Source: a virus
Lineage: Duplodnaviria > Caudoviricetes
IMG/VR virus record: IMGVR_UViG_3300010338_000470
DNA length: 64,000 nucleotides
Strand: one strand, 5' to 3'
The notes under the pieces are model-generated. The model had not been told where the DNA came from, ran no database searches, and saw only the letters and a list, made by a program, of their open reading frames with translations. Position 1 is the first letter of the stretch; the number at the start of each line of letters is the position of its first letter. Shown piece by piece: positions 20,316 through 35,714 of this stretch. The translations under genes were made by a program, and so were the position numbers.

Positions 20316-20316
20316 T

Positions 20317-21031: not shown

Positions 21032-21033
21032 AA

Positions 21034-21397: not shown

Positions 21398-21419
21398 TAG
21401 CTTCCGACAAGCGGAATAG

Positions 21420-21501
21420 TCCCCCAAGAGGGAGTCGAACCCTCACGCCCGAAGGCACCCGGTCCTAAGCCGGGCGCGTCTACCAGTTCCGCCATCGGGG
21501 G
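21420..21501 (-). tRNA. tRNA-Leu (TAG)
   Basis: Cloverleaf with variable arm. Confidence 0.92.
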
Positions 21502-21502
21502 A

Positions 21503-22077
21503 AATGAGTGTAGGGGAGCTAGGTTCAGGCTCCCCTGTCGCCACACTTTACCGGCCTGCTTAGACCTCGTGGCTTTGATCACACATCCAGGAACTACCCT
21601 TGGTTGTTATGGGGTTTGTGCGTATCCCCTTAGCCCCTACAGACTTCTTGGCATCAGCCCTGGCCGGGGCCTCATACCAGGGGGAGCGGAAATCTCCCCC
21701 TTCCCTTTACCAACGAACCTTACTCAAGGGTCCGTCCTGGGATATAACCCTACGTCTGTAGGTTAGCTCAGCATTTCCGTTTCACAGTTCAAAATGTGAA
21801 ATTCCCTATGCGTAGCGCTGAGCAGGCAGGGAGCACACCTCCTTGCGAGAGATGAGCTTTGCCACTCCGCTTTACCACCCCGATCACCCTGGCAAGGCTT
21901 TTCGAGGCTCTCTTTTCACATGCAGTGCCAGCCACATGCTCCCCCGGATTCCAGAGATGCTATCCCCGCTAAGGGTCCCTGGCGTCCGGTTCGTGGAGAT
22001 TTGGACCTAACGGCCCCGCAGAATCCTGGGAAGGATCCCGCGTATCGCAGGTTGCCCTGCTATCCGGTACTCCTCAA
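21503..22077 (-). ncRNA. Large structured ncRNA, ROOL-like (~575 nt)
   Basis: No credible ORF; many long helices with 5'/3' closure; own promoter; motifs ATGTGGCTGGCA, GATACGC, GAGGTCTAA and TAAAGTGT resemble ROOL as I recall it. Confidence 0.65.
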
Positions 22078-22128
22078 CCGTCTAACTTTTCAAGTGTCGT
22101 CCGTGGCCCCGTGGGGGCAACGGAGATA

Positions 22129-22157
22129 ACTCTACCATGTCAGTCTTCAACTTTCAA
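22129..22157 (-). promoter_or_regulatory. Sigma70-type promoter for the ROOL-like RNA/tRNA/tmRNA transcript
   Basis: TTGAAA-17 bp-(TGG)TAGAGT. Confidence 0.7.
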
Positions 22158-22307
22158 GCGAAGGCTCCAATGTTAGCTGCATCACCAAGGCTTGCAGCCA
22201 AACGCTCAGGGCATCCAGCATGCCGCCATCAAGTGGCGTTCCGTGCAGAAGTGGATGCACTAGGCTCAGGAGGCCCAAGGCCACCAAAAACAACTTGTAG
22301 GTTCGCA

Positions 22308-22382
22308 TGGAGCCGGTTGCAGGACTCGAACCCGCCCACACTGCTTACAAGGCAGTTGCTCTTCCTGATGAGCTAAACCGGC
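22308..22382 (-). tRNA. tRNA-Thr (TGT)
   Basis: Cloverleaf with CCA. Confidence 0.92.
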
Positions 22383-22388
22383 AAAACT

Positions 22389-22480
22389 TCCCAAGATGGG
22401 GAGGACTCGAACCTCCTCCTCCCCCCACCAAAGCTGACATGCAAGGGGGGTGTGCTTCCAATACACCACATATCCTGGGA
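22389..22480 (-). ncRNA. tRNA-like element with an 18-nt anticodon loop
   Basis: Normal D arm and T arm; C6/G6 stem enclosing TTGCATGTCAGCTTTGGT; irregular acceptor stem. Confidence 0.55.
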
Positions 22481-22694
22481 GCAGGTAAAGGATTTCAGAG
22501 ATGGTTCCACTGGAACATCACAATCCTCCCCCTTCCCTTACATCACAGCTAGTCCTGATTGCCTGTTGGGCCTTTAACCCAACTGGTTTCTTGTGCCTGT
22601 CAGCGTGATACAACCAGTTTTCACTGAGGTTCTTGAAAGGGTTCAGACTGGTATTTGCTCCAGTCTCCCCACCTCCTACTACCCGATACCAAAG

Positions 22695-22766
22695 CACCCT
22701 CGGAAGGACTCGAACCTTCAACTTCCTCGTTCGTAGCGAGACACTCTTCCATTGAGTTACGAGGGT
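22695..22766 (-). tRNA. tRNA-Arg (ACG)
   Basis: Cloverleaf. Confidence 0.92.
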
Positions 22767-22771
22767 TTAAG

Positions 22772-22853
22772 CGGAGCGAGAGGGATTCGAACCCCCAACC
22801 CTTGACGGGCCACCGTTTTCAAGACGGATTGGCACCCCAATGCCGGTCGCTCC
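22772..22853 (-). tRNA. tRNA-Ser (TGA)
   Basis: Cloverleaf, long variable arm, G73. Confidence 0.9.
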
Positions 22854-22894
22854 AAACTGGCTGTCGCCAGTCTACCTTGGCGATCTACGGTTAG

Positions 22895-22979
22895 CGGAAC
22901 ACCGAGGACTCGAACCCCACCCCTTGCGGGGCGCATTCCTTAGCAGGGAAGCGCGGCAAGCCTTACCGCTTGATGTTCC
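22895..22979 (-). tRNA. tRNA-Ser (GCT)
   Basis: Cloverleaf, long variable arm, G73. Confidence 0.9.
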
Positions 22980-23062
22980 AGAATGAATGCGCTGCCAGCG
23001 CTTTCCGTTGTGCACCGAAGTGCATGCAGGCCGACGGGGCACCACCATAAAATCTAGGCTTC

Positions 23063-23294
23063 GATAGTCGGGGGCGATACCCATCACTGATGGGTCATCC
23101 CACACCAACTTGAAGAAATCTACACAATCATCAACAGAACGTCCCTGAAGGTACATCTCTATACACTTGTGGACGAGAGTCCCAAAGGATGCTGCTGCCG
23201 ATTGAAGTTCTACAACGTCAGGATGCTCTTGTGCCAGCTTGTACTGTAGATTGCACTCTTGAAACTTTTTGAGTAGCGACGGATTGAACTTCAC
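23063..23294 (-). pseudogene. N-terminal fragment of a PD-(D/E)XK (RecB/Cas4-like) exonuclease
   Basis: MKFNPSLLKKFQECNLQYKL..AASFGTLVHKCIE, then runs into non-coding/tRNA sequence before any catalytic motif. Confidence 0.65.
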
Positions 23295-23602
23295 CAAAAA
23301 TCCCTCGCTGTGATAACTGATTCCCATCCATCGTATTCAGAAATGAGATAAGGCCCGTCAACCTCTACCACCTCTAAATCATCAGCCCCACCCGTGTGAA
23401 AGTGTTTCAAACCCAAATCAACCATCATCTGGATGATCAGATCATGGTGAGGGCCACTCCTTTGGCATAAATCCTTTGGGTTGCCACCCGACTCAATGAA
23501 GTCAATGATAGGCCGGTACTCAGCGATCTCTTTCCGCTTATCATCTGGTGCCCAGGTCGACCATCCAGCACCATAGCCTGTACTTACTAAAATCTTCGTC
23601 AC
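23291..23602 (-). CDS. Hypothetical phage protein
   Basis: KILVSTGYGAGWSTW..ISEYDGWESV; overlapping start/stop with neighbours. Confidence 0.75.
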   Translation of the reverse strand: MTKILVSTGYGAGWSTWAPDDKRKEIAEYRPIIDFIESGGNPKDLCQRSGPHHDLIIQMMVDLGLKHFHTGGADDLEVVEVDGPYLISEYDGWESVITARDFW

Positions 23603-23901
23603 ATCTTCTCCAAAAGAATCAACAGAAACTGGATCTCAGCATCTGAACACTCCAACACATTCACGAGCCTAGCGAACACGTTCGCTGCCGGGAAGCGAGT
23701 CGGAGTGATCGTGATATCGAAATCACGCATGCTCCCATCCTCTAGAAGGAAGCTCAAGGAAACATCCGTTGGATACGGCTCCTCCGTTCCAGCCCATCTC
23801 TCGTTGATGTACGTCTCGCTGAATCCAAGGAAAGCCTTCTGAATCACCTCGGCAACATCACTACTGAACAGTTCCCCGTCGTGCGATAACTTGTTTCCCA
23901 T
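23599..23901 (-). CDS. Hypothetical protein
   Basis: Leaderless -10 upstream; overlaps the next gene. Confidence 0.65.
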   Translation of the reverse strand: MGNKLSHDGELFSSDVAEVIQKAFLGFSETYINERWAGTEEPYPTDVSLSFLLEDGSMRDFDITITPTRFPAANVFARLVNVLECSDAEIQFLLILLEKM

Positions 23902-23983
23902 GCCGCCAACGTAGCACCCACTTCTACGTATAGGGCAGCCCTCCCCATCCTTGAGGTCGAGAGTGGTGCTACAGAACGTTCAG

Positions 23984-24066
23984 CGGTAAGAGGAGTACTC
24001 GAAACCCATGCCTAGCGACACGATCCGTTTTCGAAACGGTCCCCAGGCCTCCTGGGTTCACTTACC
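23984..24066 (-). tRNA. tRNA-Ser (CGA)
   Basis: Cloverleaf, long variable arm. Confidence 0.85.
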
Positions 24067-24070
24067 GGAG

Positions 24071-24157
24071 CGGAACACCGAGGACTCGAACCCCATGCCA
24101 TTTTTCAGACACCAACTTCTTTCCAGGAAGTGCCGACGCCTAGTCGGTTGATGTTCC
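24071..24157 (-). tRNA. tRNA-Ser (GGA)
   Basis: Cloverleaf, long variable arm. Confidence 0.9.
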
Positions 24158-24231
24158 ATATGTTCGCTTCATCCTGCGCTGATACTCCCGTTGGTACTCA
24201 CGCTCTACTGCTGGATCTGAGAATGGTATGA

Positions 24232-24591
24232 TCAGGCAGCCACCCGACGACTCAAGCCGGTGGTGTCGCCACCTCGCTTGTGACGCTTGGCGTCAGCGAA
24301 GGTCCTGACCGGGTTCCTCTTACGGATAGGGCTACACCCACAGGAATCGAAAAGGCCACGTGTCGTGCCATTGTTGGTCATGACATACAGCTTCTTCCAT
24401 TGACCCTTCTGGCTCTGGCGTGGGGCTGTAAAGTCGCGGCCCATGTTGAGCCCCTGCTTCTGACACTTCAGACAACACATTGTGCCGGTCTGGGTATGCT
24501 CACCATACTGGGAGCGCGGACCTTTCCAGGCGATGCGACAATCGAAACAAGCGTAAACGCTTCGATAGTAGTTGTAACTGTAGCGGCACAT
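24232..24591 (-). CDS. Cys-rich hypothetical protein
   Basis: YACFDCR..CLKC..MGRDFTAP..FDSCGC. Confidence 0.7.
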   Translation of the reverse strand: MCRYSYNYYRSVYACFDCRIAWKGPRSQYGEHTQTGTMCCLKCQKQGLNMGRDFTAPRQSQKGQWKKLYVMTNNGTTRGLFDSCGCSPIRKRNPVRTFADAKRHKRGGDTTGLSRRVAA

Positions 24592-24615
24592 ACCACTACA
24601 GTATCACATTCGGTT

Positions 24616-24765
24616 TCAGGCGATAGCCTTAACCTCCAAGACCTCCACTTCTGCCAGCTCATAATCTTCAAGCTGGCAAAGAATCCCGTATCTGATGACG
24701 GCTTCGTCAGGAGTCGAAGCCCTGACGACTATCGGCCCATTCGGGCCATCCAAATGCCATTCCAT
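24616..24765 (-). CDS. Small hypothetical protein
   Basis: MEWHLDGP..; AAGGA RBS. Confidence 0.5.
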   Translation of the reverse strand: MEWHLDGPNGPIVVRASTPDEAVIRYGILCQLEDYELAEVEVLEVKAIA

Positions 24766-24783
24766 GGCTATTTCCTTTCCGGA

Positions 24784-24859
24784 TGGGGCGACTGAGGAGA
24801 TTCGAACTCCCACTAACAGGGACACAACCTATCGTGCTAGCCATTACACTACAGCCGCC
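24784..24859 (-). tRNA. tRNA-His (GTG)
   Basis: G-1:C73, CCA. Confidence 0.93.
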
Positions 24860-24900
24860 ATGACTGATTTTCAAAATTTGCACCTCGTACAGGTGCATCA

Positions 24901-24973
24901 TGGTCCCCTCGGAAAGAATTGAACTCTCGTAAGCAAGTTTCGAAGACTCGCCACCGGCTCCACCGGCAAGGGG
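24901..24973 (-). tRNA. tRNA-Arg (TCG), aberrant D arm
   Basis: CGAGT-CT TCG AA-ACTTG, CCA. Confidence 0.82.
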
Positions 24974-25103
24974 ATGGCCCACCTTACGCAAGGGTTTGGG
25001 CGGGTACTGGCCTGCGATCCTGAACCCACAACTCGGGTTTGGTCCTTGCGCCAGGATTCTTCAGACTTCACCAGTATCGCTGGCTGTTGAAATCTGAAGT
25101 TCG

Positions 25104-25177
25104 CTGGAGTGGCAGGTCTCGAACCTGCAAATCCCTGATTCAGAGTCAGGTGGGTCTACCAGTTCCCCTACACTCCA
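25104..25177 (-). tRNA. tRNA-Gln (CTG)
   Basis: U1-A72, G73 cloverleaf. Confidence 0.92.
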
Positions 25178-25323
25178 ATGGCCCCTGCTTGCCTCCGGGG
25201 CGGATGGCCGCAGAAGAAGGTCCTGGGGCCGGTCTCCTAAACCCCAGGACCCTCTCTGCACGATGAGCCTAAGTGGCGATGGCCACTTGGTGCATTTAGC
25301 GCCACAGGCCCAAGCCTGTAGGT

Positions 25324-25450
25324 CCAAGCCAAGTCATATCTAGCTTCCTTGGCCTATGGGGATACCGCTAGCCCCAAAGGAGCGACAAGCACTCCTCTTA
25401 GCGGAAACCAATCCTAGCTGGTTGGCCAGGGAGTTCCTGGACTTGCTTGG
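25324..25450 (-). ncRNA. Unnamed pseudoknotted RNA candidate
   Basis: Closing helices CCAAGC-AAGTC/GACTT-GCTTGG and CCTGGCC/GGCCAAGG; loop TAGCGG complementary to upstream CCGCTA. Confidence 0.5.
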
Positions 25451-25467
25451 ATTCGGTTCCCACGAAC

Positions 25468-26013
25468 TTAACCGGAGATCGCCTCAGCTTGAAGGTTGTC
25501 GACACCGAAGAGTGGCTTCAGCAAGACTCCACAGTCCGCCAGGTTGTCAAAACCTCCCACTTGACGATCGATCACACAAAGAGCGCAATCCACGGCAGCC
25601 CCCAAGTGACGAAGGTCGCCAACTGAGGTAATGATCTGACCGCCTGAAGTTACGACATCCTCGATAACTAGAGTCTGCCTTCCTTCTACATTAAACCCCT
25701 CCACCAAGCGTTCTGTTCCGTAGGCCTTGGCCTCCTTCCGCACGAACGCCACCGGAAGGTCGGTTTCCAAGGATAACCCAACAGCGATAGGAATCCCGCC
25801 CATCTCCAGTCCAGCTAAACACTCGGTCTCATCGGGGATGAGCGAGACTAGGGCAGAACAGATACGTCGCAATAGTTCCGGGTCCGATTCAAATTGATAC
25901 TTGTCGAAGTATCGATCAGACGTGGACCCAGAGCGAAGGGTGAAGGTACCCACCGTTTCGCACCTATTGCTTAGTTGCGATCCAAGATGCTGCAAACTGT
26001 TTGTCGCCATCAA
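25468..26013 (-). CDS. pyrE: Orotate phosphoribosyltransferase
   Basis: GTFTLRSG..YFDK, FVRKEAKAYG, LVIEDVVTSGG. Confidence 0.93.
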   Translation of the reverse strand: MMATNSLQHLGSQLSNRCETVGTFTLRSGSTSDRYFDKYQFESDPELLRRICSALVSLIPDETECLAGLEMGGIPIAVGLSLETDLPVAFVRKEAKAYGTERLVEGFNVEGRQTLVIEDVVTSGGQIITSVGDLRHLGAAVDCALCVIDRQVGGFDNLADCGVLLKPLFGVDNLQAEAISG

Positions 26014-26066
26014 TCTGCTTCTCTGGAGCGGTTACTTCGAGGGCTGATCCAGCGATCAGCCATTAG

Positions 26067-26142
26067 TGGCGGGAGAGGGATTTGAACCCTCGACCTCCTG
26101 CTTATGAGGCAGGCGAGCACATCCAGACTGCTCCACCCCGCT
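26067..26142 (-). tRNA. tRNA-fMet-like (CAT)
   Basis: 1:72 mismatch, GCGGGGTGGAGCAG, TTCAAAT T-loop. Confidence 0.88.
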
Positions 26143-26253
26143 ACGCAAACTATAGCACACTGGGGTCTTCACCCGATAATCTTGGCTCATAGACAACCAC
26201 GGAGAGAGGTATCCGCTAGGATTCAAGTGGAACCCATTCAGCGAAGGAAACCC

Positions 26254-27174
26254 ATGCCTTACTTGTCTCCCACCCAAGAAGAAATAGACCTAATGACCTC
26301 TCAGCTAAGCAGTCGTCTGGGAGATGCGGAAGCGAGGCTAGAGGCTCTTGAAATCCAAGTAGCAGATTTGCTGAACTCCAGTCAGCCATCCCCGATTACT
26401 CCAACCGAATGGGGTTACAACCTTACCAGCCCCACCAACCTTGAGTCGGTGGCACTCAACTTGGGTGACCCTCAGGTTGTCAGGCTCTTTTTCTCAGGTT
26501 CTCCCGGTTCAGGGGAACCAACCTGGGCTCTGGGTAAAACCGCTATCGTTAGCTTCAAGTTCAACCCGACTCAGGCCTTCCCGGCAGAGAAGCTGCGAGC
26601 CTTCCTGGCTTCCAAGCCAGCCAACGTGAAGGCCTACGTTTGCACCTATCATGAACCAGAAGGCAACATCAGAGCGTACCAATTCACGGCAGCGCAATAC
26701 CGTGACTTCGTCACAGCAACTACTTCCGTATGCCGGGAGTTCGAGAACTGTATCTCAACCCCCATCCTCATGCAATGGACCCTAGAGTCAGCCTCCGGAC
26801 GGAACGTAAACGACTATCTTGAAGGAGTCGAATACGATGTCCTCGGATGGGACGTTTACCCAAGACTAGGAACCATCAAGGACATCCAGGCTCAGCTAAA
26901 GTCCATTCACGACGAATCCGTCAAGAGGGGTAAGCCTTGGCTTATTGGTGAAGTGGGGGCCGTGAAGTACGTCGAAGGACGCCAGTACCCCCGCCCTTCC
27001 TACACTGAAGCAGATCGGGCTGTTTGGATGCTTAACACGGTAGCCCAGATCAAGGCTCTAGCTGTCCAACCTCTGGCGGTCTGCTGGTTCACTTACCCGA
27101 CCGATGGGCACCTCTACACTCTTGAATCAGCTGAGACGCAAAACGCCATGAAGCAAATTCTTGCCAACGGGTAA
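26254..27174 (+). CDS. Glycoside hydrolase, GH26/clan-A-like TIM barrel with N-terminal coiled coil
   Basis: YHEPE (acid/base), LGWDVY, WLIGEVG (nucleophile), VCWF. Confidence 0.72.
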   Translation: MPYLSPTQEEIDLMTSQLSSRLGDAEARLEALEIQVADLLNSSQPSPITPTEWGYNLTSPTNLESVALNLGDPQVVRLFFSGSPGSGEPTWALGKTAIVSFKFNPTQAFPAEKLRAFLASKPANVKAYVCTYHEPEGNIRAYQFTAAQYRDFVTATTSVCREFENCISTPILMQWTLESASGRNVNDYLEGVEYDVLGWDVYPRLGTIKDIQAQLKSIHDESVKRGKPWLIGEVGAVKYVEGRQYPRPSYTEADRAVWMLNTVAQIKALAVQPLAVCWFTYPTDGHLYTLESAETQNAMKQILANG

Positions 27175-27175
27175 G

Positions 27176-27526
27176 GTTGAGAAGCCCTGTAGCCGGAGTT
27201 TTGTCATTTAAGACCATCATCCATCTAGGAAGAAACCATCTCCCTCCCCCTCGCGGGGGTGCACCAACCCGGTCATAATGGGCCTGGCCGACCTAGACCT
27301 ATTTGGCTTACTACAGCTGAAGTTTACTCAGCCAGGAACATTACTGCCCTGCTGGGGGTCTCTTACACCCCCTCTTCCACCTACTGACCTGTGCCCTGAG
27401 GGCCATCGGCCGTCCGTTCGCTATGCACTTGTTGTCCTCTCGCGAGGCCCGGTTTAACCCGGCAGCTTTGCCATATGTAGCTCCGAACTTCCTCTACTTT
27501 CGCAGCGATGGTCCAGGCTTCTCAAC
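27176..27526 (-). ncRNA. rnpB: RNase P RNA (type A-like)
   Basis: P1 GTTGAGAAGCC/GGCTTCTCAAC; CR-I GAGGAAGTTCGGAGC; CR-V ACAAAACTCCGGCTA. Confidence 0.93.
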
Positions 27527-27531
27527 ACTAG

Positions 27532-27615
27532 TGTCGGTAGAGGGACTTGAACCCTCACGCCCCTAAGGGCACTAGCCCCTCAAGCTAGCGCGTATACCAA
27601 TTCCGCCATACCGAC
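27532..27615 (-). tRNA. tRNA-Leu (GAG)
   Basis: Cloverleaf with variable arm. Confidence 0.92.
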
Positions 27616-27620
27616 AAGTA

Positions 27621-27694
27621 TGGTCGAGATGGGGGGAATCGAACCCCCGTCATACGGTCCCAAACCGTAAGTTCTACCATTGAACTACATCTCG
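27621..27694 (-). tRNA. tRNA-Pro (TGG)
   Basis: Cloverleaf with CCA. Confidence 0.92.
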
Positions 27695-27751
27695 TAAGGA
27701 GGAGACCCCTCAGTCTCACCACTTTGACGTTGCGGGCAGGTGACGCCCGGA

Positions 27752-27827
27752 TGGTGCGGTATGCCGGATTCGAACCGACTGTCTTCTCGTTGGCAACGAG
27801 ACGCATCGCCAGCAATGCTTATACCGC
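27752..27827 (-). tRNA. tRNA-Gly (GCC)
   Basis: Cloverleaf with CCA. Confidence 0.9.
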
Positions 27828-27832
27828 CAAGG

Positions 27833-27908
27833 TGGAGCCCGCGAAGGGATTCGAACCCCTACTTTCTCGTTACGACGGAGACGTGCTAGCCATTAACACT
27901 ACGCAGGC
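27833..27908 (-). tRNA. tRNA-Thr (CGT)
   Basis: Cloverleaf, C31-C39 mismatch. Confidence 0.87.
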
Positions 27909-27909
27909 A

Positions 27910-27986
27910 TGGAGCCCCCAGGGAGAATCGAACTCACCTCTTGTAGCGTACCATGCTACCGTGCTATCCATTACCACTATGGAGGC
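27910..27986 (-). tRNA. tRNA-Thr (GGT)
   Basis: Cloverleaf with CCA. Confidence 0.9.
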
Positions 27987-27988
27987 CT

Positions 27989-28533
27989 GACAGTGATTGA
28001 GGCTCACTGTGGGCCTGAGAACTCTCCTACCCATGGCCTTGGGTCGCCTGATTTACCTAATATCCGACTTGACGGTACTTCCCCGCCCTTTTTCAGGCAA
28101 GCGCACGGATGGAACGAACACCCGCAGGGCCGAGCACATACGATACTACGTAGCTCCCCTCAATGTCGCTAGAGGTTTCTACCATTGTACCCCACCCGCT
28201 ACGCGATTGTGTAGCAAGCCTGGTAGCAACGCATGTGCCGGGTATCGCACATGTTACCCTAGCCGGTTTTTTGTTTTACCATGGATCAGCTGTATACATG
28301 CTCGGGTTAAGAGCCCTCGCCACTGTCCAAGTTCCGTGTGACCTTCACGTTCACGTAGTTGGCTAACGTTCCATGCCCGTTATTTAATATGCTCGTTCAA
28401 GCATAACCAACTACCGCTCTGAGCCTAAGATCTCTTTGAGGTCGGACTGTCCTCACCCTACAGATGTCTTAGCATCCCTGCACTGAACGGACTGGGAGCA
28501 CAACCCGTTCCTGATTGCCCCGAAGGGCTCTCA
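27989..28533 (-). ncRNA. Large structured ncRNA, GOLLD-like (~545 nt)
   Basis: Between tRNAs, no credible ORF; more than 12 helices plus loop-loop complementarity; A-rich linkers ATTAAATAAC and GGTAAAACAAAAAACCGG and a terminal TCTCAGGCC resemble GOLLD as I recall it. Confidence 0.6.
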
Positions 28534-28536
28534 TCG

Positions 28537-28607
28537 TTCTCCGCAGAGGAATCGAACCCCTAGCTTCTGGGCCAAAACCAGACGTGTTTCCGTTACACCA
28601 TCGGAGA
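28537..28607 (-). tRNA. tRNA-Gln (TTG)
   Basis: Cloverleaf. Confidence 0.88.
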
Positions 28608-28611
28608 ATAG

Positions 28612-28683
28612 TGGAGTCGCGGGGAATCGAACCCCGATCTTCTGGTTGCAAACCAGAGGTAATGGCCCTTATACGACGACCCC
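28612..28683 (-). tRNA. tRNA-Ala (TGC)
   Basis: G3-U70, A73. Confidence 0.92.
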
Positions 28684-28686
28684 AAT

Positions 28687-28760
28687 TGGTGCACCTACGA
28701 GGAATCGAACCTCGGTCAGTCGGATGTAAGCCGACCGCTCTCCCATTAAGCTATAGGTGC
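28687..28760 (-). tRNA. tRNA-Val (TAC)
   Basis: Cloverleaf with CCA. Confidence 0.92.
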
Positions 28761-28764
28761 TCGG

Positions 28765-28837
28765 TGCGGGCACCAGGGATTGAACCTGGGTCACGCAGAT
28801 ATAAGCTGCGTGGGGGCAACCAGCCCCCCCTACCCGC
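28765..28837 (-). tRNA. tRNA-Ile (TAT)
   Basis: CGCAG-CT TAT AT-CTGCG. Confidence 0.85.
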
Positions 28838-28852
28838 TAGATTCGACCACAG

Positions 28853-28936
28853 TGGGGGCGGTGGGATTCGAACCCACAACGGTCTTTCGACGCCGAGTTA
28901 AAAGCTCGGTCCCTTCAGCCATTCGGTCACACCCCC
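28853..28936 (-). tRNA. tRNA-Lys (TTT) with long variable arm
   Basis: CCGAG-CT TTT AA-CTCGG followed by a GTC-GAAA-GAC arm. Confidence 0.85.
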
Positions 28937-29385
28937 AGAAGGCCATAAGATCTGGCCCATTTGCGAACAGCATTATCGCTGACGCCGTACTTGCTAGCAA
29001 TAGCCACCCATGACATTGATGCAATCTCCTGCCTGAGAACTTCAGGAGAAGGTCTTTCAACCTTCCGGCTAGCTATCCTAGCACATCTATCTGAACAATA
29101 CAACTTGTTCTTCGTTGCCGTACCACACCGCATGCAATCAACAGTGGGTGCTGAGTGCTTCTCTTTGTGTTGATCGACACTAAGCACTTCTAAGTTGTCC
29201 AGAGCATTGTTTGTGCGATCTTCGTCAATGTGGTGGACATGTTCATCTTCAAGAAGTGGTCGACCGAGTGCTTGCTCCATCAGATATCGAGGATACGACT
29301 GGCTCGTATAAACCCCATCATCACTGATGAGCACGACGATTAGTCGTCCTTCTTTGCCGTTGGAATACGGACCGTAGACCCTCAT
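28927..29385 (-). CDS. HNH endonuclease with C-terminal HTH
   Basis: RYLMEQALGRPL..EHVHHIDEDRTNNALDNL; KYGVSDNAVRKW. Confidence 0.9.
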   Translation of the reverse strand: MRVYGPYSNGKEGRLIVVLISDDGVYTSQSYPRYLMEQALGRPLLEDEHVHHIDEDRTNNALDNLEVLSVDQHKEKHSAPTVDCMRCGTATKNKLYCSDRCARIASRKVERPSPEVLRQEIASMSWVAIASKYGVSDNAVRKWARSYGLLGV

Positions 29386-29627
29386 GGTGAAACCTTCTTG
29401 CTGACTGGACGAATCCAGAGCGGAAGAGGAATCCAGATCCTCTCGTGGCCCTTGCCCTTGCCGAAGTCATGTTCGATCTGCACCTTATGTCTGCCCATGC
29501 AGGCGAACTTAGAACGACGTACGTTCCAATAGTGTTTTGCATTCAGAACCTTCTTGTGTTGACCTACCTTCTTATTGGCGGAAGGTACGGCGATGACTGA
29601 GAGCCATCCGGTTCTTTGGATGCGCAT
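29382..29627 (-). CDS. Basic hypothetical protein
   Basis: Stop overlaps the HNH start (ATGA). Confidence 0.55.
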   Translation of the reverse strand: MRIQRTGWLSVIAVPSANKKVGQHKKVLNAKHYWNVRRSKFACMGRHKVQIEHDFGKGKGHERIWIPLPLWIRPVSKKVSP

Positions 29628-29642
29628 GGTACCTTTCTACGA

Positions 29643-29719
29643 TGGCACGGGGGGAAGGAATCGAACCCTCGCTACACTTGGGTCAGAACCAAGCTGGCAA
29701 ACCAGCATGCCACCCCCGT
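29643..29719 (-). tRNA. tRNA-Gln (CTG), second copy
   Basis: CTTGG-TT CTG AC-CCAAG, CCA. Confidence 0.85.
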
Positions 29720-29720
29720 A

Positions 29721-29834
29721 TGGTGGTTCCGGCCGGAATCGAACCGGCAACCCCCGTCGGGGCGACATCCATGTATCTGACTACAGAAATCGGGTGCTAG
29801 GGCGGGCTTTCCCCCGCAATCCTTTCGGACCACC
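29721..29834 (-). ncRNA. Oversized tRNA-like RNA (~114 nt)
   Basis: Perfect T arm GCCGG-TTCGATT-CCGGC, 3' ACCA, enlarged D, anticodon and variable arms. Confidence 0.6.
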
Positions 29835-29839
29835 CGTAG

Positions 29840-29913
29840 TGGGCATACTCGGATTCGAACCGAGAATCCTGGAAGTTTGAGTTCCGGTGCTTTGCCAGTT
29901 AGCACATATGCCC
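29840..29913 (-). tRNA. tRNA with CAA anticodon (Leu) but a short variable loop
   Basis: GGAA-CT CAA AC-TTCC, 74 nt. Confidence 0.82.
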
Positions 29914-29914
29914 T

Positions 29915-30008
29915 AAGTTTCTCTTGCTATTCTTCCAAGTAGGCGTTTGAGCGTGACATGCGCTGTCTGGGTGGAAGCCAGGTGCTCTGCCAATTGGGCT
30001 AGACAGAC
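29915..30008 (-). pseudogene. 5' half of tRNA-Gly(TCC) fused to an HNH C-terminal remnant
   Basis: GTCTGTC-TAGCCCAATTGGCAGAGCA-CTGG CT TCC AC CCAG, then a frame reading ACHAQTPTWKN; no T arm. Confidence 0.6.
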
Positions 30009-30009
30009 A

Positions 30010-30096
30010 TGGTGCCGGAGGAGGGATTCGAACCCCCTAAGCTCAAAAGCAACTGATTTACAGTCAGCCCCAACTCACCGTCGTTGGCGCTCCGGC
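30010..30096 (-). tRNA. tRNA-Tyr (GTA)
   Basis: Cloverleaf, variable arm, CCA. Confidence 0.9.
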
Positions 30097-30108
30097 GTGG
30101 AGCGATAG

Positions 30109-30409
30109 GTACGATGGTGTGCCACATCCATGGTTCGATGTAGCGGTTAGCCCACTGCTTGTGCAGACCCAAAGGCTTGCCCTTGTCGTCAAGCGGGCCG
30201 AGCTGTGATAGCTCTCGCACACCCTCAACGCAGGCATCCCTCATGCGCAGGATGATCTCCTCAGCCTTGGCACGATCCTCGTCGGTCATGGGCGTTACCG
30301 CCTGCATGCCCGGTTGGTTATACCTATAGTCCACCGGCAAGGCTGGATCATCTTCGATCCTGCTTAGCTGCTTCCACGTTGGGATGGCTCGACTAGATGC
30401 CGAGTTTCG
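30109..30409 (-). pseudogene. thyX: Internal fragment of ThyX (FAD-dependent thymidylate synthase)
   Basis: RNSASSRAIP...NQPGMQA...LHKQWANRYIEPWMWHTIV; no start, no C-terminus; preceded by a tRNA 5' half (30410-30442). Confidence 0.75.
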
Positions 30410-30442
30410 AAGCCACTCTGACCAGACTGAGTTACACCCCCG

Positions 30443-30517
30443 TGGCGCTCTATCCGGGACTCGAACCCGATTCTCAAGCTTGACAAGCTTGGGTGGTAAC
30501 CCATACACCAATAGAGC
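30443..30517 (-). tRNA. tRNA-Asp (GTC)
   Basis: Cloverleaf, G73, CCA. Confidence 0.92.
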
Positions 30518-30519
30518 AG

Positions 30520-30768
30520 GTGCCCCCTCTCCCCTTGCTAGCAGGAGATGACTTAGGAGGACTTTTAGGTCAGTCTGGTTTCCGGTACCCTGACGAGTAT
30601 CAGTCGACAAGGCTGCCTTGCAGCGCTACAGGGACAGGCGCGTTACCTGCCATCACCGGCACACCCCTGACTTTTGGGTGCTTCGCTCTTGTAGAAGTGG
30701 ACGGGTTGGACGTTGGCGTCTCAGCCACAAGAGTACGTCGCCCCATTACCGCTGAGTCGACCCGTCAT
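30520..30768 (-). ncRNA. Unnamed pseudoknotted RNA candidate (~250 nt)
   Basis: GACGGGT/ACCCGTC, CTCAGC/GCTGAG, crossing CTCTTGT/ACAAGAG, CCGGT/ACCGG, CCCTG/CAGGG. Confidence 0.5.
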
Positions 30769-30780
30769 AGATCTATCAAT

Positions 30781-31146
30781 CTAGCCTTTCCACAAGAAGT
30801 CGGGGAAGGGCTTGAAGGTCTTGTCTTCTAAGCTATCTAGACTCCAGATCCCTTGTGGTGGGGTTAGACCCGTTCGATTGAGGCGCTCATTGACTGCCTC
30901 ATTGAATGCCTCCTTGTTCCAGTAGACACCGCTGTCGCCAGAGTACGAAAACTCTGACAGACGTATGTGTTGACCGGGGTGAGGAACAGCTTCTTCAAGG
31001 GAAGCCCTCTGGTCGAACTTGAACTTGAGTTCAATTGTCCCGGAGAGATCCACGGCTGTCACAGCTTGAGTCCCATCCTCCAAAGTTTCAACCTTCGTCA
31101 CCCAGAGGGTGCCGGGAGCGTATACCATCGTAGACATGGGGGGCAT
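30781..31146 (-). CDS. Hypothetical protein
   Basis: 121 aa ORF after tRNA-Asn. Confidence 0.6.
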   Translation of the reverse strand: MPPMSTMVYAPGTLWVTKVETLEDGTQAVTAVDLSGTIELKFKFDQRASLEEAVPHPGQHIRLSEFSYSGDSGVYWNKEAFNEAVNERLNRTGLTPPQGIWSLDSLEDKTFKPFPDFLWKG

Positions 31147-31169
31147 CTTAACACCCCTAACTACAGAAG

Positions 31170-31242
31170 CTCTGGGACCAGGATTCGAACCCGGAACTTT
31201 CGGGTAACAACCGAACGCGTTCGCCATTTACGCCATCCCAGA
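31170..31242 (-). tRNA. tRNA-Asn (GTT)
   Basis: U1-A72, G73. Confidence 0.92.
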
Positions 31243-31293
31243 ATGGTTCCGGTCTCTCCCGGATGTCAAACCACTCACGCAGGTTTCGCCTCG

Positions 31294-31367
31294 TGGTTCC
31301 TCTCAGATTCGAACTGAAGCCTCTGGGTCTTCACGCCAGCGTGCCATTCCAACTACACCAAAGAACC
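31294..31367 (-). tRNA. tRNA-Phe (GAA)
   Basis: Cloverleaf, C31-C39 mismatch. Confidence 0.85.
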
Positions 31368-31368
31368 A

Positions 31369-31453
31369 TGGTACTCCTGGGGGGAGTCGAACCCCCACAC
31401 CCGAAGGCAACTGAGTTTGAATCAGCCGCGTCTGCCAATTCCGCCACAGGAGC
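31369..31453 (-). tRNA. tRNA-Leu (CAA), canonical
   Basis: Variable arm, CCA. Confidence 0.92.
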
Positions 31454-31463
31454 ATGACTGAAG

Positions 31464-31532
31464 CGCCCTTGCCCAGAGTCGAACTGGGTCAACTTGCTTA
31501 GGAGGCAAATGTCGGTATCCCACCGCAAGGGC
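31464..31532 (-). tRNA. tRNA-Arg (CCT), aberrant D arm
   Basis: TTTGC-CT CCT AA-GCAAG, 69 nt. Confidence 0.8.
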
Positions 31533-31542
31533 AGTTGTTTAG

Positions 31543-31614
31543 CACCCCCACGGGGATTCGAACCCCGTTCTCGGACTTGAAAGGACCACGTCTTAACCCA
31601 TAGACCATGGGGGC
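31543..31614 (-). tRNA. tRNA-Glu (TTC)
   Basis: Cloverleaf. Confidence 0.9.
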
Positions 31615-31649
31615 AAGTTTGTGTGGTCCGGTTTTCAGAGCCACACTAG

Positions 31650-31722
31650 TGGGTGTGAGAGGATTTGAACCTCCACCAATCGGGTAAGAGCCGATCATGC
31701 TAGCCGTTAACACCACACACCC
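31650..31722 (-). tRNA. tRNA-Lys (CTT)
   Basis: Cloverleaf. Confidence 0.92.
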
Positions 31723-31881
31723 ATGAGTTGACCGCATAAAGTGCACTTGCGGCCAACTTATCATCGCGTAGGGCATTTGAGCCCCCCACTCGGCTCCGGC
31801 TGTCTATTCGCTGTTCCTCGGCAGCTAGCCGCCCTAACCCCTAGGAGGATGAATCCTGTGGGAGGGGAGGATTTTCTTGCG

Positions 31882-31954
31882 TCGGCATGGAGAGAGTTGA
31901 ACTCCCATTTCGACCTTATCAGAGTCGCGTCTTAAACCGTTGGACCACATGCCG
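31882..31954 (-). tRNA. tRNA-Ile (GAT)
   Basis: Cloverleaf. Confidence 0.9.
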
Positions 31955-32004
31955 TAGTGTCGGATTGGGATGACTTTCCCTCAAGAAGTCCGACAGCTCC
32001 TTTG

Positions 32005-32091
32005 TGGGGGTGAGAGGATTCGAACCTCCTGAAGCCTTTCGGGCCAGCAGGGTTACAGCCTGCCCCAACTCTCCAACGTTGGCGCACCCTC
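32005..32091 (-). tRNA. tRNA-Tyr (GTA), second copy
   Basis: Cloverleaf, variable arm. Confidence 0.88.
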
Positions 32092-32094
32092 ATA

Positions 32095-32340
32095 GGTGCG
32101 CGGATTCTCTCTGGATACCGCGTAGGTCACACAACTTTGCCATGTGTCGGCTCCGATACTCTATCGGTAGTACCTGGCCAACTTGCGAAGAAGGTCAGGA
32201 TGGAGGTTCCGTGCCGGTGGGAAGGAGTGTACGTCCTGCCCATTCGCTCCGACTCTAGTTCCCCTTTTCGGGGCGCTACCCCGACATCGAGTCCAATTTC
32301 TGTCGACTTACTCCAGGCTTGGACTAGGCCTAGAACTGGA
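32095..32340 (-). ncRNA. Unnamed multi-hairpin RNA with a kissing loop
   Basis: Adjacent hairpin loops AGTCCAA and TTGGACT are complementary; at least 6 further hairpins. Confidence 0.5.
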
Positions 32341-32343
32341 TCA

Positions 32344-32418
32344 TGGCACCCGATGGGAGAGTCGAACTCCCGCTTCTTGACTGAGAATCAAGCGTCACTA
32401 CCGCTAGACCAATCGGGC
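32344..32418 (-). tRNA. tRNA-Glu (CTC)
   Basis: Cloverleaf with CCA. Confidence 0.92.
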
Positions 32419-32569
32419 ATGCGAGGGAGTGTCACCTCCCCCGTTGCAGAAGTTGTCTCTCTTCTCTTGCCTGATTGGATATGGTCCAGTCAGGAGGACC
32501 CTTCACCCACATCAAAGTCGGGTGTCAACGCTTTCGCGACCACTTACTATCTTTGGGCCAAAGCCCTAG

Positions 32570-32640
32570 CACGCCCTGGAGGAATCGAACCCCCGCCTTA
32601 ACTGGTTTGGAAGCAGTTTGGTCACCATGACCTAAGGCGT
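32570..32640 (-). tRNA. tRNA-Trp (CCA)
   Basis: Short D arm, C31-C39 mismatch, G73. Confidence 0.82.
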
Positions 32641-32649
32641 ATATGTTGT

Positions 32650-32723
32650 TGGCAGGAGTGCAGAGAATCGAACTCTATCGACAAGGGTTTTGGAGACCCT
32701 CCGGCTACCTCAGCCTCACTCCT
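32650..32723 (-). tRNA. tRNA-Trp (CCA), second copy
   Basis: A1-U72, G73, CCA. Confidence 0.9.
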
Positions 32724-33057
32724 AAGTTCTACTACCCCAAGTGCGTTCCCTGTGACAATTAGCGCAGACTACATCACACTTGTCTATCTCTTCGTTGAGC
32801 TTCTTCCACGAACCTCGTTTCATCAGCGTGTTGATTACGCCAGTCTTCTCAGCGGGATCACGATGATCGAAGTCCATTACATGTGGTGGGTAAGCTACCC
32901 CACAGTCCATGCATGGTTCCGACTTAAGCTGATTGACGTAATCTTTCATCTTCTGGTACTTGATGCGGTTTCGCTCGTAGTACTGTTCTCGATTTTCTCT
33001 GTAGTGATTCCTCCTAGAAGCTCTTGCCCGTTCATCTAACGGGTCCTTGTAGGCCAT
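32722..33057 (-). CDS. HNH endonuclease
   Basis: PCMDCG..MDFDH..KCDVVCANCHRERT. Confidence 0.88.
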   Translation of the reverse strand: MAYKDPLDERARASRRNHYRENREQYYERNRIKYQKMKDYVNQLKSEPCMDCGVAYPPHVMDFDHRDPAEKTGVINTLMKRGSWKKLNEEIDKCDVVCANCHRERTWGSRT

Positions 33058-33064
33058 GTTGCTG

Positions 33065-33093
33065 ACCTTACCACGCATTTCTTCATTTGTCAA
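33065..33093 (-). promoter_or_regulatory. Promoter at the head of the tRNA array (leaderless HNH)
   Basis: TTGACA-17 bp-TAAGGT, ATG 7 nt downstream. Confidence 0.75.
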
Positions 33094-33305
33094 GTCTGTG
33101 TTTGAAGTCACAGCGAGGGAGAGGTCCAGGTGGCCTGGAGTCCGCTTCTACCTACCTAGGTTCGCTGCTTCAAACGTTGATTCAGCTACCCTGGGCGGGA
33201 GCAAACTCTTGGGCAATCAACCAATTGCCTGGGAGTGAGCGCGACGTCGCCACCTGCTCGGAGCGCTTATAGGCTCTCAGTGTGGATTTCGTCGCCATGT
33301 CAAAA

Positions 33306-33334
33306 ACTATAGCACACCCATCTACGCAAGTCAA
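33306..33334 (-). promoter_or_regulatory. Promoter preceding a 38-codon leaderless ORF
   Basis: TTGACT-17 bp-(TGC)TATAGT. Confidence 0.65.
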
Positions 33335-33390
33335 AACGCTTGGCTACAGTCCGTGTTTTCCGGGCCACTTCGTCTACTAGAATTGAGATC

Positions 33391-33699
33391 ATGTTGAACT
33401 TTCTAGCCGCCGCGACAGATGGGATCACTCTGGATTCAGCCCTGACGGCTTTGAACTTAGGGCTGGCAGGCATCGGCCTGCTTGCTTTCACTAGAGGATG
33501 GATCGTTCCAGGAAAGACCTATGAGGAATCTCTCCGCAGGGAGGCTGAATCTCGGGCCGAGATAACTAAACTCAACAAAGCGATGAACGACAAGTTTCTG
33601 CCTGAACTCCAAAAGGCTAGAGCTGTCCAGATCGCTTTAGGCCAACTAGTGGACCGAGTGGCAGCCTTCGTGGAGAAGGAGGAATCCCGTGAGTCTTGA
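33391..33699 (+). CDS. Small membrane protein (holin-like)
   Basis: One TM segment, RGWIVPG, coiled-coil tail. Confidence 0.6.
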   Translation: MLNFLAAATDGITLDSALTALNLGLAGIGLLAFTRGWIVPGKTYEESLRREAESRAEITKLNKAMNDKFLPELQKARAVQIALGQLVDRVAAFVEKEESRES

Positions 33700-33764: not shown

Positions 33765-35714
33765 TCAAGACACTGCTGTCAAGACTCCAGGAGCCAGCTC
33801 AGGCATCTTCAACCCGGAGTCAGCGATAAACCTAGACGGATCAACCTTCACTCCCTTGTCGTTGACGGATGGCACTCCAATCTTCAACGTATCTTGGGCA
33901 CGAGTGAAGGCAACGTAGGCTGCTCTACGCTCCGAAAGGTAACTCCCCTCCTTCTTAGCCATGATGTGAGGGAGGGAATCGTCATGCATGTTCGACAGCC
34001 ACACCACGGGCCACTCGGATCCCTTGCTGGCGTGGATGGTGCAGATCTGGGTAGCATCCTTGGACTCAATCTGAAGACGTGAACACTCGTCAGTGAAATC
34101 AATCAGATCCTTGATGGATGAGAACCTTCCGGCAACCTCCAGCAAAGTTTCGATGTTCTCGATCCTGCTGGAGTCAGCGTCATCCTCGATCCCGTTCGTC
34201 TTTCGGAGCCAGTCAATGTACCCTGTGGAATTAAGGACCATACTGATGGCTGACCTGGGGCTGATAGGAGTTCCCCCTGCTTCCCTCAAGGAGATGAGCA
34301 GGTCGGAAAGGTCCACTGCTGCCTGGCGCTGCTTGGGGAACAGCTTCTTTCCAGGGTACGAATCAGTGAACCTGATGGCCTGAATGACATCATCGTTGTA
34401 CTTTTGGGCATTCCCTCGAACAGCGTCAACAAAGGCCCCACCGAGAAATCTGGTCGGACGATTGATGATCTTCGACAAGTAATCCCATCGCTCGTCACCG
34501 GCCCCGTTCGCCAGGCGGAGGTAAGCCATGATATCCCCAACCTCCATGCGGTCGAAGAACCCTCCACCCTTGCACCAGTAAGGCAACCCCGCTGCCACGA
34601 AGGCAGTCTCAAGGTCTGCTGACTGAGCATTGGTGCGAGTCAGGACGGCCACATCACCACCCCTGAGGCCAGACTCCCTCATGGAGAGAACGTCACTAGC
34701 GATGTAGTGGGCCTGGTCCAGCGAGTCAATAAACGAGTGTACTTCGATGGACCCCCCCTGACCTCTCACGGAAACCTGATCCTTCATGCCGAGGCCAGAG
34801 ATCAACTTGTTGACCACGTCAACGACGGGCTTCACGCTCCGATAGTTGTTGACGAGATCAACACGAAGCGCACCCTTGTACCTTCCCATGAAGTTCTCAA
34901 AAGCCTCAGGGGAAGCGCCCCTGAACTCGTAGAGCGACTGCCGAAGGTCTCCCACGACGGTCAAGTTGGGGCTCTCCGACGGGGGTGCGAGCATCTCAAG
35001 AAGCCCCCACTGCAAAGAGTTGGAATCCTGGCACTCGTCCACCAAGAAGGCTTTCCAGGTCCCCTTGGCGAGAGCCAGGGCCTCAGGGGAGGACTTCAGT
35101 AGATCGTAACCCTTCAGGAGCATATCATCGAAATCGATGAGGTTCTCAGTCCCCAGGGCCTTCTCGTACATCGGGTACACCTTCGCAGCAGCGTAGATGT
35201 CAGAATCCCGCGGGGCAGAGTCGACAGTCTCCTGGATCTCAGGGTCATAATGGTGGATGCCAGAATTCTTCCAACGCCCAATCCACCCCAAAACCTTGCC
35301 CACGTCAGCGTTCAAGTTGAGAGCATCCGGAGTCTTCCTGCTCGCAGGTCCAAGGAAATCCTGAACTACCTGCTTCCTCTTGTATTCCTTCGCCAATCCA
35401 GGGAGTTGCTGACCTCTGGCCTCCATCCATCGGTTCATGAATCGGAACATCAGCGAGTGAAAGGTCGAGATGACGAGATCATCTGAGTTCACAAGTGGCT
35501 GCACTCGCTCACTCATCTCCTTAGCGGCCTGTCGAGTGAAGGCAGCGACGAACATCTCAGAAGGGTTGACACCGTTCTCGACCTGATAGGCAATCCTGGA
35601 TACGATGATTCGGGTCTTCCCGGAGCCAGCCCCAGCCATGACAGCGAGCGGCTCGAAGGGAGCCGTCACGGCCTTCTTCTGTTCAGGGTCAAGTCCATCC
35701 AGGTAGTTCGTCAT
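33765..35714 (-). CDS. UvrD/PcrA-like SF1 helicase
   Basis: AGAGSGKT, LVDECQD, VGDLRQSLYEFRG, NYRS, TIHASKGSEW, YVAFTRA. Confidence 0.95.
   Translation of the reverse strand: MTNYLDGLDPEQKKAVTAPFEPLAVMAGAGSGKTRIIVSRIAYQVENGVNPSEMFVAAFTRQAAKEMSERVQPLVNSDDLVISTFHSLMFRFMNRWMEARGQQLPGLAKEYKRKQVVQDFLGPASRKTPDALNLNADVGKVLGWIGRWKNSGIHHYDPEIQETVDSAPRDSDIYAAAKVYPMYEKALGTENLIDFDDMLLKGYDLLKSSPEALALAKGTWKAFLVDECQDSNSLQWGLLEMLAPPSESPNLTVVGDLRQSLYEFRGASPEAFENFMGRYKGALRVDLVNNYRSVKPVVDVVNKLISGLGMKDQVSVRGQGGSIEVHSFIDSLDQAHYIASDVLSMRESGLRGGDVAVLTRTNAQSADLETAFVAAGLPYWCKGGGFFDRMEVGDIMAYLRLANGAGDERWDYLSKIINRPTRFLGGAFVDAVRGNAQKYNDDVIQAIRFTDSYPGKKLFPKQRQAAVDLSDLLISLREAGGTPISPRSAISMVLNSTGYIDWLRKTNGIEDDADSSRIENIETLLEVAGRFSSIKDLIDFTDECSRLQIESKDATQICTIHASKGSEWPVVWLSNMHDDSLPHIMAKKEGSYLSERRAAYVAFTRAQDTLKIGVPSVNDKGVKVDPSRFIADSGLKMPELAPGVLTAVS

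Follow-up and report, generated by a model that had tools for sequence, protein, structure and literature searches.

A conserved structured RNA, probably a new non-coding gene, carried between tRNA genes in the arrays of uncultured phages

Here we report a structured non-coding RNA gene that we read, with a probability of roughly 75%, as previously undescribed and as carried in the form of a cassette in phage tRNA arrays. The gene was found in a 64,000-nucleotide (nt) stretch of viral DNA (IMG/VR record IMGVR_UViG_3300010338_000470; hereafter referred to as the window), in which a 549-nt non-coding stretch on the minus strand is flanked by tRNA-Gln(UUG) on one side and tRNA-Thr(GGU) on the other. 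A shorter copy occurs between two other tRNA genes of a related phage. Comparison of the two copies reveals that the RNA is conserved and non-coding, that its structure is kept by compensatory change, and that its boundaries run exactly from tRNA to tRNA. A first-pass annotation made from the sequence alone had proposed a structured RNA of about 545 nt between these two tRNAs, and this proposal is confirmed by the non-coding nature of positions 27987–28535 and by a homologue with compensatory changes.

A few enigmatic large RNAs, namely GOLLD, ROOL and the T4 stable RNAs, are known from phage tRNA arrays, and none of these has a known function. The T4 stable RNAs C and D ('species 1 and 2') are about 120–140 nt long, lie in the T4 tRNA gene cluster, are of unknown function and are matured from the tRNA precursor by tRNA-processing enzymes. 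GOLLD and ROOL genes occur in phages and prophages, in many cases close to tRNA islands (bioRxiv 10.1101/2024.12.08.627333; PMC6582537). [quoted passage not shown]

Genomic context of the RNA

The source of the window is an uncultured tailed siphophage with a genome of about 150 kb. Its gene set includes a tape-measure protein, DnaB, a UvrD-type helicase and an intein-bearing class II ribonucleotide reductase, and the terminase adjoins the helicase in relatives of this phage. Helicases 99.7–99.8% identical to that of the window are encoded on 148–151-kb contigs (JGI, ENA and Logan), with one variant present on 54 contigs, and the genome size of about 150 kb and the recurrence of this phage in many samples follow from these near-identical helicases. 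No close cultured phage was found, and a megablast search with the whole tRNA array returned a 40-nt tRNA-Asn as its sole match.

The array comprises 40 tRNAs between 14.9 and 32.7 kb of the window, all on the minus strand (ARAGORN and Rfam), together with a tmRNA and a bacterial type A RNase P RNA. The RNA starts with GAUGA, one base past tRNA-Gln(ttg), and ends directly adjoining tRNA-Thr(ggt), the gaps between the RNA and its flanking tRNAs being 0–2 nt. The coordinates of the RNA, of its elements and of the neighbouring features are given in Table 1.

Table 1. Coordinates of the RNA gene, its structural elements and associated array features (window coordinates unless a contig is named).
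Feature	Position	Strand	RNA position	Remarks
Whole RNA gene	27987..28535	−		549 nt; RNA position i = window 28536 − i
Upstream tRNA-Gln(UUG)	28536..28607	−		Anticodon ttg; CCA not encoded
Downstream tRNA-Thr(GGU)	27910..27986	−		Anticodon ggt
P1 hairpin	28512..28533	−	3–24	UGA/UCA plus GCCC-UUCG-GGGC; identical in both copies
GCCC-UUCG-GGGC		−	8–19	First-pass motif
P2 hairpin	28485..28510	−	26–51	10 bp; 1 both-sided and 2 one-sided changes, all pairs kept
GAACGG/CCGUUC		−	within 26–51	First-pass motif
P3 5′ strand	28473..28484	−	52–63	Pairs with RNA 425–436; long-range, closes central domain
CUAAGA/UCUUAG		−	64–69 / 106–111	First-pass complementarity
P6 and P7 5′ strands	28456..28468	−	68–72, 76–80	Partners RNA 415–419, 407–411
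P8 mini-hairpin	28438..28454	−	82–98	9-nt loop ACAGUCCGA invariant
Expansion domain	28130..28437	−	99–406	308 nt; helices known from window copy alone
GUAGUUGGUUA/UAGCCAACUAC		−	122–132 / 171–181	11-bp stem
AUGUGC/GCACAU		−	284–289 / 298–303	First-pass motif
CAAUG/CAUUG		−	349–353 / 371–375	First-pass motif
P7 and P6 3′ strands	28117..28129	−	407–411, 415–419
P3 3′ strand	28100..28111	−	425–436
P4 domain	28046..28098	−	438–490	GCCUGA/UCAGGC encloses P4a and invariant single-stranded GUCGGAUAUU
GCCUGA/UCAGGC		−	438–443 / 485–490	First-pass motif
P5 hairpin	28029..28044	−	492–507	ACCCA/UGGGU; 1 both-sided change
AGGAGA tail	28023..28028	−	508–513	Invariant, unpaired; Shine-Dalgarno-like
Window-specific 3′ hairpin	27990..28010	−	526–546	ACAGUGA/UCACUGU; absent in L090
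ACAGUGA/UCACUGU		−	526–532 / 540–546	First-pass motif
tmRNA	21033–21397	−		Within tRNA array (ARAGORN, Rfam)
Bacterial type A RNase P RNA	27174..27524	−		Rfam, 145 bits, E 9e-45; five tRNAs downstream of the RNA
RNase P RNAs of related phages	L089 21241–21596; L090 20962–21356; L088 21604–21953			At tRNA array end
YrlA (RF02553) sub-threshold matches	L088 15166–15233; L089 14752–14816; L090 14453–14518, 14792–14859, 15374–15441
rnaB	21502–22140	−		Upstream of tRNA-Leu and tmRNA
rnaB homologues	L087 15660–16320; L088 15700–16310; L089 16290–16950; L090 15850–16475

A compact homologue in a related phage

An nhmmer search of the fetched relatives with the 549-nt RNA as the query identified a single homologous locus, a 223-nt copy at positions 19341–19563 of L090, a 185-kb contig whose helicase is 54% identical to that of the window. 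Both ends of the window RNA are represented in this locus: RNA 1–101 aligns with L090 19341–19442 (E 1e-7), and RNA 405–515 aligns with L090 19448–19562 (E 7e-10). Conversely, a covariance model built from the L090 copy alone finds both halves of the window RNA, with scores of 62.9 and 46.4 bits (E 1e-15 and 5e-11). The core shared by the two copies is about 72% identical, and the corresponding values for the same pair of genomes are 76% for the RNase P RNA, 60% for the tmRNA and 62% for the second large RNA described below. As judged from these identities, the value for the core is consistent with ancient common descent followed by loss from some lineages, or with an ancient transfer, the structure having been preserved either way.

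In L090, the copy precisely fills the space from tRNA-Gln(ctg) to tRNA-Asn(gtt). The sister genomes L308, L088 and L089 have the same two tRNAs side by side, separated by a single base, and the L090 element is thus an exact cassette bounded by tRNA ends. The GAUGA start, one base past the discriminator of a CCA-less tRNA-Gln, is common to both copies.

The structure is maintained by compensatory changes

We compared the two copies across nine shared helices (P1a, P1b, P2, P3, P6, P7, P4, P4a and P5), which comprise 54 base pairs. Pairs identical in both copies number 34, nine differ on one side, ten differ on both sides with pairing kept, and one is non-canonical, being G·G in the window copy and U–A in L090; these counts come from two independent members, too few for a phylogeny-aware significance, and from helices that were partly selected for pairing in both copies. 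Examples are P4, where GCCUGA/UCAGGC in the window corresponds to GCUCAG/CUGAGC in L090 with both-sided changes in four of the six pairs, and the inner part of P3, where GGAUG/CAUCC corresponds to AGGCG/CGCCU with both-sided changes in three of the five pairs. In a register control, 53 of the 54 pairs are canonical in both copies, a number that falls to 9–18 of 54 when the 3′ partner is slid by 1–3 positions. Each copy contains 7–8 G·U pairs, which would be A·C mismatches on the opposite strand, and the minus strand is therefore the RNA strand.

Independent MFE folds of the L090 and window RNAs concur on most of these helices at homologous positions, and constraining the full window RNA to form the shared helices raises its folding energy by just 5 of 207 kcal/mol. 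In L090, the MFE fold also contains two short helices, GUG/UAC and GUCG/UGGC, that are not kept in the window copy; these were not counted as family structure. The covariation among homologues that the first-pass annotation had named as a check was thus found between the window and L090, and a homologue with compensatory changes is decisive evidence that the window structure exceeds chance.

The folding energy is less discriminating. The window RNA has an MFE of −207 kcal/mol, corresponding to z-scores of −3.3 or −4.1 with two shuffle sets. Fourteen coding windows of 549 nt from the same phage, used as controls, have a mean z of −0.9, but three of them reach z ≤ −2.7, and the folding energy by itself is therefore no more than suggestive. 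The L090 copy, taken alone, folds no better than its shuffled counterparts (z −1.3 to −1.4).

Architecture of the RNA

Judging from the alignment of the two copies, the conserved core is about 220 nt long and is formed by both ends of the window copy. It begins with the P1 hairpin and continues into P2, the loop of which carries a CUCC segment that is invariant in both copies. The long-range helix P3 has three both-sided changes, one one-sided change and the single G·G pair of the window copy. Inside P3, the helices P6 and P7 keep all of their pairs through one both-sided and four one-sided changes, and the junction following their 3′ strands, within GUUCGUUCC (RNA 417–425), is invariant. The 3′ half of the core contains the P4 domain, in which the P4a hairpin (RNA 449–465) has an invariant GGAAGUA loop and two one-sided changes, followed by P5 and the AGGAGA tail.

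Two pairs of invariant segments have complementary sequences. The GUCCGAC of P8 is complementary over 7 bp to GUCGGAU at RNA 468–474, both segments being invariant in the two copies, and this complementarity could reflect a pseudoknot. Likewise, the GGAG of the tail is complementary to the CUCC of the P2 loop, again with both segments invariant in the two copies, and these could form a further pseudoknot.

The size difference between the two copies is concentrated between P8 and the 3′ strand of P7, where the window RNA has its 308-nt expansion domain and L090 has a 12-nt linker. All of the helices listed in the first-pass annotation, the CUAAGA/UCUUAG complementarity and both A-rich stretches are present in the window copy, each at a single place on the minus strand. 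The homologue comparison covers three of these helices and bears them out, namely the UUCG hairpin, which is invariant, GAACGG/CCGUUC and GCCUGA/UCAGGC. The others lie in parts found only in the window copy: the 3′ hairpin, or the insert, which holds the 11-bp stem, AUGUGC/GCACAU, CAAUG/CAUUG, the UCUUAG partner of CUAAGA and both A-rich stretches.

Distribution among related phages

To place the RNA within its phage group, we used the UvrD helicase (window 33765–35762), which belongs to a clade of relatives at 43–59% identity. The DNA around twelve helicase relatives was examined, and six have a comparable tRNA array just downstream of the helicase, five of them full (L087, L088, L089, L090 and L308) and one partial (L309). 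A tmRNA is present in L087–L090 and L308, and an RNase P RNA in L088, L089 and L090. Run with default filters on all of the relatives, the covariance model detected no further copy of the RNA, neither in L087, L088, L089 and L308, for which the 10 kb on the downstream side of the helicase was also searched with filters off, nor in the relatives with a gene-rich version of the region (L081–L086 and L211). With the window included, the RNA is present in two of six array-bearing genomes examined, and its absence from the sequenced 10 kb in four related arrays indicates that it is dispensable for the phage group. No protein is common only to the two RNA-bearing genomes, as assessed by tblastn searches of the window and of the remaining relatives with the ORFs of the L090 array.

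Searches beyond these relatives yielded no additional copies. A helicase search of IMG/VR returned one close contig, which is too short downstream, and a metagenome search returned only distant helicases (≤34% identity). Exact patterns of conserved blocks, five on IMG/VR contigs and one on metagenome contigs, gave chance matches only, all of which were rejected by nhmmer or the covariance model. Two conserved-block patterns searched in one genome for each of 185,579 prokaryote species gave nothing or one chance match, the latter on a Bulleidia MAG contig in which neither a model match nor a tRNA was found. Neither the 549-nt nor the 223-nt copy has a blastn match in 50,697 GenBank phage records.

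Other elements of the arrays

The same arrays contain a second conserved RNA, which we refer to as rnaB, a large non-coding element located upstream of tRNA-Leu and the tmRNA (Table 1). All four relatives compared have a conserved copy (nhmmer E 1e-43 to 1e-70), and RNAalifold predicts 155 pairs for the element, 51 of which have both-sided changes. Like the 549-nt RNA, rnaB lies on the minus strand of the array, has no Rfam match and shows covariation; the two sequences are unrelated, and rnaB is the better sampled, being present in five of the five genomes compared, whereas the 549-nt RNA is present in two.

This phage group also has its own type A RNase P RNA at the end of the tRNA array, with Rfam scores of 145, 143, 137 and, for a truncated one, 88 bits. 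The window RNase P RNA has no blastn match in the 50,697 GenBank phage records. Further RNA-like elements include sub-threshold matches to YrlA (Y RNA-like) between tRNAs of related arrays, at 31–39 bits against a gathering score of 69, which may be tRNA-like modules or Y RNA relatives; no YrlA match was listed for the whole window array at E ≤ 1 (Rfam). ARAGORN also called tRNA-SeC(tca)-like genes at L090 14752–14825 and L308 15550–15626, which could be UGA-reading suppressor-type tRNAs or miscalled tRNA-like elements.

The window also carries mobile elements. On the minus strand of the window, the class II ribonucleotide reductase has an intein with a LAGLIDADG domain (1641–6209), and an 1807-aa ORF has at least two Hint/intein modules (36252–41675). 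An HNH endonuclease gene (PF13392, E 1e-7; window 28927–29385, minus strand) lies inside the tRNA array, five tRNAs upstream of the RNA, and HNH genes also occur within the L081 and L088 arrays. One relative has an intein-bearing terminase (L085 6517–9087).

Comparison with known RNA families

The first-pass annotation had likened the RNA to GOLLD, suggesting a compact variant lacking part of the 5′ domain. Neither part of this proposal is borne out, and the lack of covariance-model similarity that the annotation had itself named as speaking against its reading was observed. Using cmscan with Rfam 15 and permissive filters, we found no match of either copy to GOLLD, ROOL or any other large RNA at E ≤ 10; a search of window 27900–28620 at this threshold returned only the two flanking tRNAs and three noise matches, and the compact copy (L090 19330–19575) returned no Rfam match. 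Across the whole array (window 19000–33500) at E ≤ 1, there was no match to GOLLD, ROOL, HEARO, introns or other large RNAs. Rfam searches in gathering and E-value modes, run on the window, the array, seven related loci and the compact copy, detected only tRNA, tmRNA, RNase P and sub-threshold noise. The smaller size is likewise explained otherwise than by a missing 5′ domain, in that the size gap between copies corresponds to a 308-nt insertion of the window lineage in the middle of the RNA, with the core formed by both ends.

GOLLD (RF01998) and the RNA described here are both phage-encoded structured non-coding RNAs located among tRNA genes, with domains that are unequally conserved. In GOLLD, however, the 5′ region is variable and the 3′ region conserved, whereas in the present RNA both ends are conserved and the middle is variable, with lengths of 549 and 223 nt. 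ROOL (RF03087) also shares the phage or prophage origin and the frequent location near tRNA islands, but differs in size and helix layout, besides giving no model match. That the RNA is a compact or divergent GOLLD, a ROOL or another named large phage RNA is thus highly improbable, despite the shared niche inside a phage tRNA array: neither the 549-nt nor the 223-nt copy matches the Rfam 15 models at E ≤ 10, and the core of about 220 nt contrasts with the >800 nt often seen in GOLLD, whose universal 3′ region, if present, should have been detectable.

The T4 RNAs C and D provide the best functional analogy for how the RNA would be made, being encoded inside a phage tRNA cluster and matured from its precursor. 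Like RNAs of this type, the present RNA lies in such a cluster, bounded by tRNAs and with no promoter or terminator signal of its own above chance. The T4 RNAs are smaller, however, and blastn shows no likeness of either copy to GenBank phage records. We regard the RNA as a candidate for a new family in the already known class of phage tRNA-array RNAs; no relation to GOLLD, ROOL or the T4 RNAs could be detected.

Alternative explanations

We considered whether the region might be spacer DNA with no function, for instance the remains of tRNAs or of a decayed gene, the likeness between the copies reflecting a shared or transferred piece of the array with no selection on an RNA. The patchy distribution and the very different sizes of the copies would suit such a history, which is nevertheless quite unlikely, because at 72% identity 19 of the 20 varying pairs still pair in both copies, ten of them after changes on both sides. 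Neutral decay would break most pairs, as illustrated by the slid-register control; moreover, several loop and junction segments of 7–15 nt are invariant, and the cassette boundaries are exact at tRNA ends. Exceedingly improbable is a small protein encoded on one of the two strands. In favour of a protein, a sense frame beginning at the ATG in GAUGA stays open to the end of the 223-nt L090 copy, and antisense ORFs of 114, 87 and 67 aa occur in the window copy. The same sense frame, however, stops after 21 codons in the window copy, which has stops in all sense frames and no ORF longer than 30 aa on the RNA-sense strand; in block 1, this frame shows one synonymous against eight non-synonymous differences. 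In most blocks, substitutions between the window and L090 show no preference for any of the three codon phases, and nearly all frames and blocks contain more non-synonymous than synonymous differences. Indels between the copies are not multiples of three, and the antisense ORFs have no Pfam match. A conserved coding ORF, which the first-pass annotation had given as an observation against its own reading, was found on neither strand.

The array gathers host-type RNAs, and the RNA might in principle be a strongly diverged housekeeping RNA captured from a host, for example an RNase P-like, SRP or 6S-type RNA, in the way that the array acquired its tmRNA and RNase P RNA. In favour of an RNase P-like origin, GAGGACAGUCCGACCUC resembles what we take to be the CR-I segment of RNase P RNA, GAGGAAAGUCCGGGCUC (E. 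coli M1 RNA), and its possible partner GUCGGAU would parallel the P4 pseudoknot; this likeness covers a single short segment. Such a capture is very unlikely, given that the models for RNase P, SRP, 6S, tmRNA and Y RNA all fail to give a match at E ≤ 10, that the two RNase P models (RF00010 and RF00011) fail at this threshold for either copy beside a genuine RNase P RNA scoring 145 bits nearby, and that the motif patterns over one genome for each of the 185,579 species gave one chance match only. A further alternative concerns the 308-nt middle, which could be a mobile insertion, for example an ORF-less self-splicing intron, whose removal would leave a mature RNA of about 240 nt, similar to that of L090. 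The insert replaces the 12-nt linker while leaving every core helix intact and folds well on its own (z −3.2), and other mobile elements, among them inteins, LAGLIDADG and HNH genes, abound in this phage. We nonetheless regard excision as unlikely: group I and group II intron models give no match to the insert at E ≤ 10, nothing similar is present in the rest of the window or in any of the fetched loci, and expansion domains of variable size, being common in large structured RNAs, explain the insert more simply.

Proposed production and role

We found no promoter or terminator signal above chance at the RNA. This, together with the position of the tRNAs within 0–2 nt, suggests co-transcription with the tRNAs and release by tRNA end-processing. 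The first-pass annotation had proposed such a release without an own promoter; the lack of a promoter signal above chance and the exact cassette in L090 agree with it, and release is the natural reading of this arrangement. In the mechanism that we propose, the RNA would be transcribed on the minus strand within a polycistronic tRNA precursor. Its 5′ end would be made by 3′ processing of the CCA-less tRNA-Gln by a 3′ endonuclease, and its 3′ end by the RNase P cut at the 5′ end of tRNA-Thr, a cut for which the phage's own RNase P RNA, encoded 0.5 kb downstream, is the likely catalyst. Protection from degradation may come from the UUCG hairpin at the 5′ end of the released RNA and, for the window copy, from the 3′ hairpin as well.

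Since phages already carry GOLLD, ROOL and the T4 RNAs C and D, we infer by analogy that the released RNA would be a stable trans-acting molecule. Its invariant loops may lock the fold through the two putative pseudoknots, or may contact a partner, for which translation or tRNA metabolism would be the likeliest setting and for which the Shine-Dalgarno-like tail makes the 30S subunit one candidate. A more far-reaching proposal, which we offer as speculative and consider unlikely, is that the core of about 220 nt represents a new functional RNA class working with the translation and RNA toolkit of the phage, either as a ribozyme or RNA-only assembly acting on CCA-less tRNAs, or as a ribosome-binding RNA that captures the 30S subunit through AGGAGA, with the 308-nt domain as an add-on module or a spliced intron.

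Implications

The minimal 223-nt and expanded 549-nt natural forms define the core of this RNA and constitute a ready-made deletion experiment. The phage lineage represented by the window is common, its 99.7% identical helicases being encoded on dozens of metagenome contigs, and material for expression studies should therefore exist. The array of this lineage also encodes an RNase P RNA of the phage's own, a tmRNA and another conserved RNA, about 600 nt long, which makes the lineage a compact system for asking why phages keep stable RNAs beside their tRNAs.
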